Below are positions 1 through 3,047 of a DNA stretch of 3,047 nt, one piece after another; position 1 is the stretch's first letter, and every line of letters starts with the position of its first letter. The stretch comes from Escherichia coli (lineage in GTDB: Bacteria > Pseudomonadota > Gammaproteobacteria > Enterobacterales > Enterobacteriaceae). Both the position numbers and the translations under genes were made by a program. Below the pieces are notes generated by a model, which was not told where the DNA came from, searched no databases, and saw nothing but the letters and a program-made list of their open reading frames with translations. The stretch lies in NCBI RefSeq assembly GCF_003334335.1, contig NZ_QOWQ01000085.1, one strand, 5' to 3'.

Positions 1-53
1 TCCATAAATTAACCTTCATTTGATGCTGGATTGAACATATCAAAATCAGGCAA

Positions 54-443
54 TTACACAAATCTATGTACAGGCTCACGGGCAATTTTACGACGGCGTT
101 CACGCCATAACCCCTCTTCTATCATCCACTTTCTGAGAGTTTCAACGGATAAAGATAAACCGTGTATCTCGCGCAATTTTTCGCACGCAAACGTAGGTCC
201 AAAATCAGCGTAACGGCCTTTGAGGAGTGAAATTACTGTTGCTCTGAATTCAGTAGAAAAGGAATTATTAGGACGCTTTCCACGTCGGTGGGAAACCAGA
301 CCAGAAGGCCCTTCATTTCTATACCGTTGCACCAGACGTTTAACCTGCCGAATAGAAATGCCAATGCGTGCCGCAGCTTGTTCCTGAATAATCTGAAGTC
401 GGTGGAGTTCCTTATGACTCATCGTAACAGTCTCTTTGATCAT
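54..443 (-). CDS. N-terminal HTH DNA-binding portion of a transposase/integrase-family protein (129 aa); likely a truncated IS or transposon remnant
   Basis: ORF-track protein MIKETVTMSHKELHRLQ...IGISIRQVKRLVQRYRNEGPSGLVSHRRGKRPNN has a helix-turn-helix signature typical of N-termini of rve/DDE-type transposases. The ORF ends at TAA (54-56) about where a catalytic domain would begin, and the 53 nt beyond it do not continue the protein in any frame. Start ATG 443..441 is preceded by a GGGGGA Shine-Dalgarno-like motif. Confidence 0.55.
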   Translation of the reverse strand: MIKETVTMSHKELHRLQIIQEQAAARIGISIRQVKRLVQRYRNEGPSGLVSHRRGKRPNNSFSTEFRATVISLLKGRYADFGPTFACEKLREIHGLSLSVETLRKWMIEEGLWRERRRKIAREPVHRFV

Positions 444-471
444 GAAAAATCCCCCAGAGAATTGTCTGGGG
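444..471 (-). promoter_or_regulatory. Hairpin plus T-tract immediately 5' of the transposase start; terminator-like and RBS-sequestering
   Basis: Minus-strand RNA reads CCCCAGA-CAAUUC-UCUGGGG (perfect 7-bp stem, plus 452-458 paired with 465-471) followed by GAUUUUUC and then AUG. The Shine-Dalgarno-like G-run lies in the 3' arm of the stem. Confidence 0.4.
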
Positions 472-531
472 ACATTTTAGAATGGTTCAAAGGGGACATT
501 ACAGCTTGGTGTTAACAATAGCCTGCTTCTC

Positions 532-547
532 CGTGCCTTTCGGCACG
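532..547 (-). other. GC-rich hairpin with GAAA tetraloop on the minus-strand transcript
   Basis: Plus CGTGCC-TTTC-GGCACG; minus RNA CGUGCC-GAAA-GGCACG (6-bp stem, GNRA-type loop). No U-tract follows, so it is not a classic intrinsic terminator. Confidence 0.3.
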
Positions 548-592
548 TAAGAGGCTAACCTACATGTGTCTAGCATGAAATTGGCCTCAGAT

Positions 593-627
593 TAATGTTA
601 AGCGTCTTGCAGGACGCGTAATGTTAA
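593..627. repeat. 9-bp direct repeat TAATGTTAA (593-601 and 619-627) flanking a short hairpin (602-618)
   Basis: Read directly: TAATGTTAA, then GCGTCT-TGCAG-GGACGC (stem includes one G-U pair), then TAATGTTAA. Function unknown. Confidence 0.45.
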
Positions 628-640
628 CTGGGGCTTTTCT

Positions 641-676
641 CTATCTGCCGTTGGTGTCCATGCCCGAGGCAGATAG
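641..676. repeat. Perfect 9-bp inverted repeat (CTATCTGCC / GGCAGATAG) with an 18-nt spacer
   Basis: 641-649 CTATCTGCC pairs exactly with 668-676 GGCAGATAG. It lies in ORF-poor DNA downstream of the small membrane protein gene (minus-strand sense). Confidence 0.45.
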
Positions 677-777
677 CCTCAAGCACCCGCAGTCATTCTA
701 CTTAACTAAGATTTCCCCGCAAACCGTTTTTGTCCAGCACAGTAAATATCCAACTAAACCAATGGAGTTCGCTGTAT

Positions 778-957
778 TTACCGCCAGTATTCAATGCACA
801 TGACCGCCATGAACACCCCTAAAAAAAGGGCATTTATATATCCAAATATTAATATCAAAACATCAACTTTTTCCATATACCTTGCTGTGAAGATGATGGG
901 CATACATGATGCGAACAACCAGAACGCAACAAACAAAAACTGCAATGCGTTTTTCAT
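778..957 (-). CDS. Small hydrophobic membrane protein, 59 aa, two predicted transmembrane helices
   Basis: ATG at 957..955 is preceded by AGGAGG with 4-5 nt spacing (minus: GTAGGAGGAATAATG). Protein MKNALQFLFVAFWLFASCMPIIFTARYMEKVDVLILIFGYINALFLGVFMAVMCIEYWR has two ~20-residue hydrophobic stretches separated by the charged loop RYMEKVD. The ORF-track version (778..996) starts at an upstream GTG with no ribosome-binding site; the internal ATG is preferred. Confidence 0.55.
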   Translation of the reverse strand: MKNALQFLFVAFWLFASCMPIIFTARYMEKVDVLILIFGYINALFLGVFMAVMCIEYWR

Positions 958-1211
958 TATTCCTCCTACAATCAATGTGCAATTACATTTAAACACACCT
1001 CAATTTGGCCGGACATATAAATATCTAAACCAGAAAAAATCACTTACATAGCGTTACAAACTCTTTAGTCTAAAGGTTCATCGTAAAACATTCCCCATAC
1101 TTATCAGTCCGTTCCGCGCCAGGTAGCTCATTGCCTTATCTGGCAACCTGTAATCAGGTTTCCGCTTTTTCAGTTGGCTGGTCGTTTAACCGACATAGTT
1201 AATCCATTAAT

Positions 1212-1499
1212 CTAGTTGCCGGATGTTGGTGGATTTTCGCGTTTTAGTTGTTCATAAAAGTGCACAGCTTTAACCAGTTCTTCTGATGTAACTGGGACTG
1301 GTGAGGCAGTGAATAAGGCCTGAATTTGATAGTTCGGCCTGTCGTTACAATCCTCTTTTTTCGGTACATATTTCCAGTCACCAGACCACTACTTCCCCTG
1401 AAAGTCCGTAACGCCTTTTTTCACGTAGCGATATCGCCATGCCACTGGTTTTGCTTGCCCCGCCGTTTCATGCCCTTCCTGATAATTAATCTCGCTCAT
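1212..1499 (-). pseudogene. Small phage-like ORF (95 codons) interrupted by one in-frame TAG at 1391..1389
   Basis: Minus frame: MSEINYQEGHETAGQAKPVAWRYRYVKKGVTDFQGK-TAG-WSGDWKYVPKKEDCNDRPNYQIQALFTASPVPVTSEELVKAVHFYEQLKRENPPTSGN-TAG. Its ATG (1499..1497) overlaps the upstream gene's TGA as ATGA. Coding-like sequence continues in the same frame after the amber codon. Confidence 0.4.
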
Positions 1500-1687
1500 T
1501 CATCGCCCCACTCATCACAATATGCTTCGACCGGAGTTTTTCCCGCTTCATAGTCATCACGCTAGGATTCGACATCAGCAGCACTTCCACCGCGTAACTC
1601 ACCATAGTCCATTAATAGTTCATCCCGCTCTTCAAAACTGATGTTATATTTAGCTGAACAAAAATCAGCCACTTTGTTCTTCCTCAT
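1496..1687 (-). pseudogene. Small acidic ORF (63 codons) interrupted by one in-frame TAG at 1564..1562
   Basis: Minus frame: MRKNKVADFCSAKYNISFEERDELLMDYGELRGGSAADVES-TAG-RDDYEAGKTPVEAYCDEWGDE-TGA. The final TGA (1498..1496) overlaps the next gene's ATG, which argues that the post-amber segment is the true C-terminus. Confidence 0.4.
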
Positions 1688-1736
1688 CGTCTTTTATTTC
1701 GTGGTATGAGTAATTGCAGTAGTTAAAGAAAATTTC

Positions 1737-1847
1737 TTATGCTCCGTCATGAATTTCCTCAGGTGTTGCGTCATCGTCCACTTCGAATACATCCTCAAAA
1801 TCTCCACCAGCTATTCCCGTTTCAATAATAATTTTGAACTTTCGCAT
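1737..1847 (-). CDS. Very acidic small protein, 36 aa
   Basis: ATG 1847..1845; MRKFKIIIETGIAGGDFEDVFEVDDDATPEEIHDGA with 11 D/E against 3 K/R. An AGGAGG lies upstream, separated from the ATG by a stable hairpin. Confidence 0.35.
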   Translation of the reverse strand: MRKFKIIIETGIAGGDFEDVFEVDDDATPEEIHDGA

Positions 1848-1854
1848 TTCACTA

Positions 1855-1876
1855 CCGCCCTTTCGGGCGGCCTCCT
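1855..1876 (-). promoter_or_regulatory. Shine-Dalgarno AGGAGG followed by a GAAA-tetraloop hairpin, then 7 nt, then the ATG of the 36-aa ORF
   Basis: Minus RNA: AGGAGG (plus 1871-1876), then CCGCCC-GAAA-GGGCGG (plus 1855-1870, 6-bp all-GC stem), then UAGUGAA, then AUG (1847). The hairpin would bring the ribosome-binding site to a functional distance from the start codon when folded. Confidence 0.35.
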
Positions 1877-1932
1877 GATGTTCTGAGGGTGCAGAAATCC
1901 ATCCGGTTAAGGATTAAATTTTATTTACAGAA

Positions 1933-1950
1933 CTGAATTTAATTATTCAG
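1933..1950. promoter_or_regulatory. 18-bp near-palindrome CTGAAT-TTAATT-ATTCAG in an AT-rich intergenic region; operator-like
   Basis: The outer 6-bp arms are exact reverse complements (1933-1938 and 1945-1950). The site lies in the ~260-bp AT-rich gap between the methyltransferase stop and the small-ORF cluster, where a promoter for that cluster is expected. Confidence 0.25.
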
Positions 1951-1981
1951 ATATACGTATCTGTAGCCTTACGAATCTACT

Positions 1982-2031
1982 CACTGGATGCCTCTTTCAT
2001 AAAAATAATCCAGTGGGTTTTATCGTTTTTT
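1982..2031 (+). terminator. Plus-strand-oriented terminator-like hairpin followed by a T-tract
   Basis: CACTGGAT (1982-1989) pairs with ATCCAGTG (2008-2015), an 8-bp stem with an 18-nt loop, followed by GGTTTTATCGTTTTTT. On the minus strand no U-tract follows, so the orientation is plus. The large loop lowers confidence. Confidence 0.3.
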
Positions 2032-2109
2032 CCCTGTTCGTTGACAGATAACAGGTTTTCTGTCTGTCAGTGCCAGAATCTGGCTTACCGGTATTTGCGT
2101 TTCATTCCA

Positions 2110-2466
2110 TTAAAAAATCAGAACGCCGTGCGGCCTCAACACCCGAAAGGCTTCTTTAAATCTCTGTCGCGAATCATCACGCCAGGCATCTTTATTCAGC
2201 CGTCCATATTTCTTTCCCATCCAGGCGTTATCACCAACACTCTCAAGATGCGGAGGGTCTAATACAACCATCGAAAAAGATGCGTCTGCAAATGATAATG
2301 CACGAAAATCTGCGATAATGTCAGGGCTGATAATCAAGCGTCTCCCATTGCGTAATGTGTATCCTTCTTTTCTGATATCGCTGAATATCGCCCGTTCGTC
2401 AGACTTATCGAACCAGAACATGCGGCTGCCACAGCACATATCAAGAATGGTTGCCGGTGCACTCAC
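2110..2466 (-). CDS. SAM-dependent methyltransferase core (118 aa), probably a phage-type DNA methyltransferase, apparently lacking a normal N-terminus
   Basis: Protein contains a motif-I-like LDMCCGS near its start, a DPPH motif resembling motif IV (D/N-PP-Y/F/H) of amino-methyltransferases, and VLRPHGVL resembling the common LKPGG motif. The only in-frame start is a GTG that overlaps the upstream ORF's stop (GTGA); a stop lies 7 codons further upstream in this frame. Confidence 0.55.
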   Translation of the reverse strand: MSAPATILDMCCGSRMFWFDKSDERAIFSDIRKEGYTLRNGRRLIISPDIIADFRALSFADASFSMVVLDPPHLESVGDNAWMGKKYGRLNKDAWRDDSRQRFKEAFRVLRPHGVLIF

Positions 2467-2729
2467 TGCGCCACGTCCTGAAAATTACCCTGATAGAAAG
2501 CCAGTATGCGCTGCATAACTTCGCTCTTCCGGCACTCGCGACAGATTATGTTTAGGCGACTGTCGTAGCGACGTATTTCTCCGTCAGGTGATGACCAGAT
2601 AAGGTCCGGATCAACCACAGCAGGTTTCTTCACCTTTGCCCTCGAGAGTTTTTTGCGGGCGTTTTGCCAGTCCTTACGCGCCTGTTCAGAGGGGAATAAC
2701 CCGTATCCGGAGCTTAAGTTGCACGCCAT
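2463..2729 (-). CDS. Hypothetical 88-aa protein; possibly the N-terminal part of the adjacent methyltransferase separated by a frameshift
   Basis: ORF MACNLSS...DLIWSSPDGEIRRYDSRLNIICRECRKSEVMQRILAFYQGNFQDVAQ ends with a TGA that overlaps the GTG of the methyltransferase frame. There is no clear Shine-Dalgarno before ATG 2729. Codon usage is otherwise coding-like. Confidence 0.4.
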   Translation of the reverse strand: MACNLSSGYGLFPSEQARKDWQNARKKLSRAKVKKPAVVDPDLIWSSPDGEIRRYDSRLNIICRECRKSEVMQRILAFYQGNFQDVAQ

Positions 2730-2787
2730 CGGGTGGGTTAAGCATAAATGTATTCCTGGTGCTAAATGGCCCGAAATTCAGGCAGAG

Positions 2788-3047
2788 ATGCGCATCTGGA
2801 AAAAACGTCGCGAAGGTGAACGCAAGGAAACCGGAAAATACACGTCTGTTGTTGATCTCGCCCGCGCCAGAGCCAATCAACAGTACACTGAAAATTCAAC
2901 AGGAAAAATCAGCCCGGTCATTGCTGCCATTCATCGCGAATACAAGCAGACATGGAAAACACTGGATGACGAACTGGCCTACGCTCTCTGGCCTGGTGAT
3001 GTGGATGCCGGAAACATTGACGGCAGCATCCATCGCTGGGCAAAAAA
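2788..3047 (+). CDS. 5' part of a phage-like hypothetical protein; continues beyond the window end
   Basis: Frame 1 is open from 2569 to the window end. First ATG at 2788 gives MRIWKKRREGERKETGKYTSVVDLARARANQQYTENSTGKISPVIAAIHREYKQTWKTLDDELAYALWPGDVDAGNIDGSIHRWAK with E. coli-like codons (CGC, CTG, GCC, GAA). The exact start is uncertain, since coding-like sequence in this frame begins near 2740. Confidence 0.5.
   Translation, partial: MRIWKKRREGERKETGKYTSVVDLARARANQQYTENSTGKISPVIAAIHREYKQTWKTLDDELAYALWPGDVDAGNIDGSIHRWAK

Follow-up and report, generated by a model that had tools for sequence, protein, structure and literature searches.

When a gene for an orphan DNA methyltransferase is followed on the same strand by three small genes, two of them encoding strongly acidic proteins, the question arises whether the four once formed a single anti-restriction module, as the initial annotation of this E. 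coli locus had proposed, or what else such a block might be. It occupies positions 1212-2729, on the minus strand, of the window, by which we mean the whole 3,047-nucleotide stretch of DNA that was analysed. Very probably the block is a decayed nin-type accessory segment that belonged to a Qin-type defective lambdoid prophage of E. coli and, within it, to the rightward delayed-early operon. Its assignment to Qin follows from the surroundings, since in the RefSeq annotation the window lies between ydfW/flxA/relBE/hokD on one side and a recE-like fragment, xis, int and rspB on the other. Its placement in the nin-type part of this operon is based on the gene order in relatives that have kept the neighborhood, which read cI / cro / cII / O / DUF977 / (methyltransferase) / small ORFs / hok / ydfU / rusA / Q. 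The genes of the block are thus found there between the replication genes and Q, on the same strand; in the window itself the O side is deleted. The same gene order around the small ORFs bears out the earlier view of the block as a phage-derived, operon-like early unit.

The ORF listing of the window shows the minus-strand ORFs of the block packed tightly on one strand, with stop and start codons that overlap in GTGA at 2463-2466 (DUF977/methyltransferase), over 8 nt between genes A and B, and in ATGA at 1496-1499 (B/C). This is in accordance with the published style of nin regions, which are tightly packed and have overlapping stop and start codons (PMC8022706). The block resembles the lambda ren-ninA..ninI-Q segment and the nin genes of P22 and L in its position in the rightward early operon, from the replication genes to Q, in being non-essential, mosaic cargo, and in the ATGA-type packing seen here at the DUF977/methyltransferase, A/B and B/C borders. 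It differs from them in being pseudogenised and severed from pR by a deletion, and A, B and C have no homologue among the nin proteins of lambda and P22. The promoter pR is not in the window, having been lost with this deletion, and promoter-like sites were no commoner in a consensus scan of the window than in shuffled sequence; terminator-like sites, counted as consensus matches alone, numbered 7 against a shuffled mean of 2.4.

Table 1. Features of the locus in window coordinates, with the evidence for each.
Feature	Position	Strand	Evidence
Gene C, PHROG 660 family pseudogene	1212..1499	-	PHROG 660, PGAP
Gene B, PHROG 519 family acidic protein pseudogene, 58 codons	1496..1672	-	PHROG 519, family alignment
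Gene A, DUF7167 pseudogene, 60 codons	1665..1847	-	PF23768, PHROG 1997, PGAP
Cassette leader, conserved	1848..1950	-	homology limits vs L003, L004, L011; fold; sequence
Orphan class I SAM-dependent (REBASE-type) DNA methyltransferase pseudogene	1977..2466	-	frame reading, PHROG 954, PADLOC, PGAP
DUF977 / Ren-like ('LygF', YdaW-type) gene, C-terminal fragment, 5'-truncated	2463..2729	-	PHROG 142, PGAP
4.6-kb deletion junction	2703..2712	.	10 bp common to both flanks; alignment to L002
RecE-like exonuclease VIII gene, internal fragment	2703..3047	+	phage matches, PGAP

The deletion is apparent from the alignment to L002, where window positions 78-2712 correspond to L002 5079-7713 and positions 2703-3047 to L002 12324-12668. 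According to the L002 annotation it removed the 5' part of the DUF977 gene, O, cII/YdaT, cro/dicC, cI/dicA, ydfA-D and the 5' part of the recE-like gene, and the RecE-like fragment, which is on the opposite strand, now adjoins the block at the former site of the promoter-proximal genes. Phages Tritos, Evi and mEp460 have exonuclease VIII genes that are 97-98% identical to this fragment, and PGAP labels it '3'-5' exoribonuclease domain protein, missing N-terminus'. On the other side of the junction, the stretch 2463-2729 had been counted as part of the methyltransferase, which has to be corrected: it is a separate DUF977/Ren-like fragment that matches PHROG 142 ('Ren-like exclusion protein', E 3.2e-20) at profile positions 59-115 of 116 and is called 'DUF977 family protein, missing N-terminus' by PGAP. 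True DUF977 homology spans 2463 to about 2712, the ATG at 2729 being fortuitous and situated within junction sequence; the intact gene encodes 140 aa in the compared loci L003, L004 and L011.

The methyltransferase pseudogene starts with GTG at 2466, overlapping the DUF977 stop by 4 nt. Both motif I (ILDMCCGS) and motif IV (DPPH) are present in the window copy, but its frame is broken. By alignment to the intact 164-aa gene of L011 and the 156-aa gene of Erwinia phage 49 two lesions were placed, a change of Lys119 to TAA at 2110-2112 and a 1-nt insertion near 2030-2036; for strain C11 PGAP describes the methyltransferase as 'frameshifted; internal stop'. The remaining 118-aa ORF (2110-2466) matches PHROG 954 ('DNA methyltransferase', E 6.7e-58) at profile positions 52-165 of 229. 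The intact 164-aa relative, WP_001275732.1, whose DNA is 88.6% identical to the window over 1974-2711, matches PADLOC MTase_II (PDLC03288, 2.6e-73, positions 3-164 of 169) and oMTase (PDLC03730, 3.8e-49, positions 5-152 of 153). In the contexts examined no restriction endonuclease lies beside the methyltransferase, its neighbors being DUF977 and small ORFs, and together with the PHROG and PADLOC matches this confirms it as an orphan. Phage orphan methyltransferases (PADLOC oMTase/MTase_II, PHROG 954) are alike in profile match, in motifs I and IV and in having no partner endonuclease; unlike the intact ones, the window copy ends after residue 118 and is frameshifted. The family occurs in 252 phage records, in temperate phages of many phyla, and at 156-164 aa its members are exceptionally short and show no clear target-recognition domain. 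Pfam gave weak matches to generic methyltransferases, and PDB sequence search gave no solved relative. The 118-aa ORF is called an intact protein by PGAP/RefSeq in many genomes (WP_001310834.1). This entry is the product of a truncated pseudogene, about 45 conserved C-terminal residues short, annotated as intact; because of that annotation the fragment may, as a formal possibility, be credited with residual activity.

Between the methyltransferase and the small genes lies a mosaic joint at 1950-1974, as homology to L003, L004 and L011 stops at 1950 and that to L011 restarts at 1974. The leader that follows (fold -23.3 kcal/mol, z -2.6) contains AGGAGG at 1871-1876 and then, at 1855-1870, a GC hairpin of 6 bp with a GAAA loop, before the ATG of gene A at 1845-1847. 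That three small genes follow the methyltransferase on its strand, and that a 36-aa ORF among them (1737-1847) contains 11 D/E, had been correctly seen. This ORF is a part of gene A, and both A and B are acidic when intact, A with 19 D/E in 60 aa (net -14, pI ~4.06) and B with 16 D/E in 58 aa (net -12, pI ~4.06). In gene A Lys37 has become TAA (1737-1739), apart from which 5 of the 59 aligned residues differ from the intact relative. The latter matches Pfam PF23768 (DUF7167, E 1.2e-14) over residues 2-53; gene A also matches PHROG 1997 (E 8e-31) and is labelled 'DUF7167 family protein, internal stop' by PGAP. In gene B an invariant Trp has been replaced by TAG (1562-1564), and the start, which lies within the 8-nt overlap with A, is GTG where relatives have ATG; the 41-aa ORF of the first reading began at an ATG upstream of it, at 1687. 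Gene B matches PHROG 519 (E 4.5e-23), and its family (65 representatives at E <= 0.001) keeps F13, W16, W37, Y41, G44 and P47 (near-)invariant down to about 35% identity, W37 being invariant. No RefSeq annotation covers B in any Qin copy; intact homologues appear as hypothetical proteins in other strains, and homologues are present in 198 phage records. Gene C, the ATG of which overlaps the TGA of B, is interrupted by TAG at 1389-1391, loses homology to the intact 119-aa relatives near 1225 and is described by PGAP as 'frameshifted; internal stop' (1078-1499). It matches PHROG 660 (E 1.2e-42) and has 643 homologues, some of them fused to DUF551 or Ead/Ea22 domains.

The initial annotation had allowed each gene one lesion at most. 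This holds for A, B and C in so far as each has one nonsense codon, to which the 3' divergence of C and the altered start of B have to be added; the methyltransferase has two lesions. The search for intact versions advised there did recover intact homologues of A, B and C (60, 58 and 119 codons) in many phages and genomes. AlphaFold predicts for A a beta-beta-alpha-beta-alpha fold (pLDDT 79) and for B a three-helix bundle (pLDDT 87), both compact single domains of 58-60 residues. In the literature searched no paper names DUF7167 or the RefSeq accessions, and nothing specific was found on Qin together with a methyltransferase, or on the nin region together with anti-restriction.

Judging from its distribution, A-B-C is a separate mosaic unit that moves by itself among enterobacterial phages. 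The methyltransferase directly adjoins the trio in 379 of 5426 E. coli genomes, and all five of those listed are 99-100% identical to the window. In more than 1500 of the 5426 the best match has 90-95% identity, and those listed have the trio without the methyltransferase. The same is the case in phages vB_EcoS-640R1, vB_EcoM-606R7 and pPE4, while in strain E01 the two are about 3 kb apart and O157 strains have the methyltransferase without the trio.

As to what A-B-C did, our best guess, which is a tentative one, is that they would have been small and acidic and would have acted by binding proteins of the host or of competitors and modulating them; for A and B, size, charge and position in the early operon point to protein binding. 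Evidence that A-B-C act on restriction enzymes was not found. They could also be accessory factors for the phage's own replication, recombination or regulation, comparable to lambda NinB/Orf, NinG/Rap and NinH and without any conflict with the host, which we consider unlikely. A position directly behind the replication genes in a nin-type region would suit such factors, as would the gene C fusions with modules characteristic of that region, DUF551 and Ead/Ea22-like ones, and some nin-region genes of lambda and P22 do work in recombination (PMC8022706). However, A, B and C showed homology neither to NinB, NinG or NinH nor to any fold that binds or processes DNA, the net charges of B and A speak against direct DNA binding, and in virulent Ackermannviridae the homologues of B are situated among small unknown genes near the head genes, away from the replication genes. 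It is quite unlikely that A (DUF7167), B (three-helix, acidic) and C are small acidic inhibitors of a new family, directed at a protein of host defence or at a host protein that binds nucleic acids, be it as a new DNA mimic or as a Gp2-like inhibitor of polymerase or nuclease, which would then be used by temperate lambdoid and virulent Ackermannviridae phages.

That the methyltransferase and the acidic small proteins made up one anti-restriction module, with DNA mimics of the Ocr/ArdA type and silenced recently, seems very unlikely. T7 Ocr and ArdA are small, strongly negative proteins that are expressed early and form elongated helical dimers. A and B are like them in size, charge and timing of expression, and they are encoded beside an orphan methyltransferase and have conserved intact homologues; the high acidity that a DNA mimic needs is found in both, but it is unspecific. 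They are unlike Ocr and ArdA in sequence and profile and also, as far as models of the single chains tell, in predicted fold, which is a compact small domain in A and a three-helix bundle in B and does not suggest an elongated DNA-shaped dimer. Searches of Pfam, PHROGs, NCBIfam, PADLOC and PDB gave no match of A, B or C to a known anti-restriction, DNA-mimic or other defence family by sequence, profile or fold, and returned DUF7167 and PHROGs of unknown function alone, so the DNA-mimic part of the proposal was not sustained. Nor was that of a single module, since the adjacency belongs to the 379 genomes of which the five listed are nearly identical to the window, and the parts are separate elsewhere. 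T7 Gp2, which had been considered as a lead, was rejected because hhalign of DUF7167 against it gave a probability of 0.3% and the PDB profile search did not recover it; scores for the small phage inhibitor folds T7 Gp2, T4 Dmd, AcrIIC3, AcrIC9 and AcrIE2 were in the non-specific range. A conjugative leading-region context, too, was rejected, since the plasmid-borne homologue of A (Klebsiella) sits in a prophage nin-like position. Among the matches of B, P0290 and P0303 had at first seemed candidate 'polyvalent proteins'; they are repeat proteins of Listeria/Bacteroides type, and the matches are therefore compositional. That the small ORFs arose by chance in non-coding prophage debris is scarcely credible and refuted by conservation, for although they are 36-41 codons long and interrupted in the window, and B is unannotated by RefSeq in Qin copies, the intact versions are conserved with family-level HMM matches, the B family residues are kept to about 35% identity, and A and B have confident AlphaFold folds.

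Returning to the decayed nin-type segment, we suggest that in its functional ancestor transcription from pR would have passed through cro, cII, O and the DUF977 gene, then through the small orphan methyltransferase and the translationally coupled A (DUF7167), B and C, and onward past hok/sok to end with ydfU, rusA and Q. The role of the methyltransferase would have been to modify replicating phage DNA and so to shield the progeny from some host restriction systems, as is suggested by its family; phage orphan methyltransferases are generally held to be protective. In this lineage every gene came to carry a nonsense codon; the 4.6-kb deletion then took away the promoter with the genes for immunity and replication, and the downstream side was broken by IS elements. 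Expression or function of anything in the block is not expected now.

Silenced the block is, as had been suggested, but 'recently' is correct only in part. The four nonsense codons are identical in L001, L002, L005 and L009, strains with different later rearrangements, and for this reason they belong, as far as these comparisons tell, to a widespread lineage in which they are fixed, and arose before the deletion took the promoter away. The block is also an ordinary one, because with the same lesions it is already known from hundreds of sequenced strains. It matters little in itself, being a stretch of pseudogenes, most of it so annotated by RefSeq, that is fixed in a cryptic prophage already well known, and as a dead copy it adds nothing on the function of A-B-C; the intact trio is very common and would be worth including in a screen of early accessory genes of phages. 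The Qin (Kim) variant of ECOR13 (PhiR42_1), C11, VG48B2 and others is 99-100% identical to the window, with the same pseudogenes and the flanks ydfW, flxA, relBE and hokD. The deletion is common to the window and VG48B2-type strains and absent from C11 and PhiR42_1, and the window differs from this Qin variant by an extra IS1414 end at 1-77.

The window is set in a defective lambdoid prophage of the Qin (Kim) type. Its bases 78-3047 are 99.9-100% identical to chromosomal DNA in hundreds of E. coli strains, and in 369 of the 5426 complete genomes at least 80% of the window is covered by one single place. In strain VG48B2 the left flank carries ydfW, flxA, ydfV, relBE, hokD, rem, ydfU, ydfT (Q), cspB/F and essD, and the right flank a 5'-truncated RecE-like exonuclease gene, xis and int, followed by rspB. 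To judge from gene order in phages and prophages which kept the neighbourhood, for example prophage PhiR42_1 of ECOR13, phages vB_EcoS-640R1 (640R1) and vB_EcoM-606R7 (606R7) and strains C11 and E01, the block is probably a nin-type accessory stretch of the rightward delayed-early operon: cI, cro (dicC), cII (YdaT), O and DUF977 are followed by the methyltransferase or other cargo, the small ORFs, and then hok, ydfU, rusA and Q. Overlapping stop and start codons, a hallmark of nin regions (PMC8022706), are matched in the block, where genes A and B share 8 nt and genes B and C an ATGA. At 2703-2712, where the two flanks overlap by 10 bp, a 4.6-kb deletion fuses the DUF977 gene to the interior of the recE-like gene, in opposite orientation, and through it pR and the immunity and replication genes are gone from the window. 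In a consensus scan promoter-like sites in the window were no more numerous than in shuffled sequence.

Features of the window and their lesions
Feature	Position	Strand	Remarks
IS256-family IS1414 end	1-77		100% identity to many copies
ISNCY/IS1202-like transposase pseudogene, N-terminal fragment	54-443	minus	
Gene C (PHROG 660 family)	1212-1499	minus	TAG at codon 37; 3' end departs from intact relatives
Gene B (PHROG 519 family)	1496-1672	minus	TAG in place of invariant Trp; start GTG, not ATG
Gene A (DUF7167)	1665-1847	minus	TAA at codon 37
Intergenic stretch	1848-1976	minus	conserved leader in gene-A-proximal part, 1848-1950
Methyltransferase pseudogene	1977-2466	minus	
DUF977/"LygF"/Ren-like gene, C-terminal part	2463-2729	minus	PHROG 142; PGAP "missing N-terminus"

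The methyltransferase begins as a 118-aa ORF (2110-2466, minus strand) whose GTG start overlaps the DUF977 stop and which holds motif I (ILDMCCGS) and motif IV (DPPH). Past the TAA at 2110-2112 the frame matches the C-terminus of intact relatives from Erwinia phage 49 (156 aa) and E. coli E01 (164 aa), until a 1-nt insertion near 2030-2036, downstream of the TAA, shifts it. In strain C11 PGAP labels it "frameshifted; internal stop", whereas in other places the 118-aa ORF is given as an intact protein. The RefSeq entry for this 118-aa protein, WP_001310834.1 ("class I SAM-dependent methyltransferase"), intact by annotation in many genomes, represents the N-terminal portion of a pseudogene whose reading frame is broken first by a nonsense codon and further on by a frameshift. 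The region 2463-2729 does not belong to the methyltransferase but to the DUF977 gene. Matches to Pfam were generic and weak, and no solved relative was found by sequence. Since an intact relative matches REBASE-derived PADLOC models over its full length (MTase_II 2.6e-73, oMTase 3.8e-49), the protein matches PHROG 954 "DNA methyltransferase", and an endonuclease gene was found beside it in none of the contexts examined, naming it an orphan DNA methyltransferase is reasonable. A total of 252 phage records contain relatives (from Streptococcus, Listeria A118, Enterococcus, Vibrio and Gordonia, among others). The part of the initial annotation that sees a phage early region with an orphan methyltransferase is supported. 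A protective, anti-restriction role may be supposed from general knowledge of such phage enzymes.

The methyltransferase and the trio of genes A, B and C are not one module. The trio is present without the methyltransferase in 640R1, 606R7 and Actinobacillus phage vB_Apl-pPE4; in E01 the two lie about 3 kb apart with Ead/Ea22-like genes between them, and in O157:H7 strains the methyltransferase occurs in a different context without the trio. Some part of 1230-2466 is matched in 2687 of the 5426 complete genomes, the joint arrangement in only 379, and the five of these listed all share 99-100% identity with the window. More than 1500 genomes have their best match at 90-95% identity; those among them that are listed carry the trio by itself. 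Homology breakpoints at 1950 and 1974 mark a mosaic joint between methyltransferase and trio. The trio itself travels as a unit with coupled reading frames, and a functional link, if there is any, is within A-B-C.

Intact versions of the small ORFs, a search for which had been proposed, are common for all three genes. Gene A has intact homologues in 76 clusters, nearly all with PF23768. Gene B, with homologues in 70 clusters of the 90% collection and 65 representatives at 50% identity, is a true family of 50-65-aa proteins in which W37 is invariant and F13, W16, Y41, G44 and P47 nearly so; some of its homologues lie amid small unknown genes in virulent Ackermannviridae phages of Salmonella, Klebsiella and Shigella. 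Gene C has 643 homologues; it either stands on its own (119 aa) or makes up the C-terminal module of proteins of 148-171 aa, some with DUF551 or Ead/Ea22 domains. Searches of Pfam, PHROGs, NCBIfam and PADLOC linked none of the three to a functionally characterised family. A conjugative leading-region setting for the gene A homologue of Klebsiella plasmid pKPN-498 was rejected, as it has a nin-like prophage position after replication protein P.

The acidity reported initially was confirmed: the 36-aa ORF has 11 D/E, intact A has a net charge of -14 in 60 aa and intact B of -12 in 58 aa, while C is mildly acidic. Charge and position are all that favour the proposed anti-restriction module with DNA-mimic proteins, the missing conservation of linkage counts against it, and a specifically anti-restriction function of A, B and C seems improbable. 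Our best guess, a tentative one, is that they are small acidic protein-binding modulators produced early in infection.

VG48B2, HSP425, PhiR42_1 and C11 agree exactly in all four nonsense codons and in the 9 bases on either side of each. As the region with O, cII, cro and cI is still present in PhiR42_1 and C11, the inactivation is older than the 4.6-kb deletion and the various IS events, and it is fixed in the lineage. The "recent silencing" of the initial annotation thus agrees with the still easily recognised frames and not with the age of the lesions; at most one lesion per gene is true of A and, except for the start-codon change, of B, not fully of C, and not of the methyltransferase with its two. 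The initial observation was largely correct. What the window contains is a defunct copy for which public genomes already have annotation.

In the leader of gene A, an element at window 1855-1876 (minus strand) consists of AGGAGG, 23 nt before the ATG, and a GAAA-looped 6-bp GC hairpin between the two. The element is conserved in all relatives (MFE -23.3 kcal/mol, z -2.6), and folding of the hairpin would give the Shine-Dalgarno sequence normal spacing. Decay seems frequent in gene C, even beside intact copies of A and B: it is frameshifted by an AA insertion in 640R1 (locus L003, 5188-5445), from which the exact TAG context of the window is absent, and annotated "frameshifted; internal stop" in E01 (locus L011, 1-25). 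Phage vB_Apl-pPE4, whose deposited host is Actinobacillus pleuropneumoniae, has a copy of the A-B-C cassette (locus L006, 3914-4724) that shares about 90% of its nucleotides with E. coli prophages and lies in a neighbourhood that looks E. coli lambdoid, which hints at an E. coli prophage origin or a mis-assigned host.

An unannotated, strongly hydrophobic ORF of 59 aa (778-957, minus strand; MKNALQFLFVAFWLF...), which looks like a protein with two transmembrane segments, occupies part of the interval from gene C to the sok locus and has the same orientation as these. In 640R1 it is the opposite strand that is annotated, as "hornerin", an annotation that looks spurious; PHROG matches were found for neither ORF. 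Window 517-688 (minus strand) matches the Rfam model of the sok antitoxin RNA, RF01794, strongly and over its full length (104 bits, E 7e-24), and in relatives a hok/mok "host killer" ORF comes next after sok (L003, 4364-4576). As homology to L003 ends at window 518, adjoining the ISNCY fragment, the toxin ORF appears to have been cut away and the sok/leader part alone left. The IS1414 end sits inserted within the ISNCY/IS1202-like pseudogene; no genome of the collection shows their exact junction in a single stretch, and the source strain therefore carries one IS insertion more than VG48B2-type strains.
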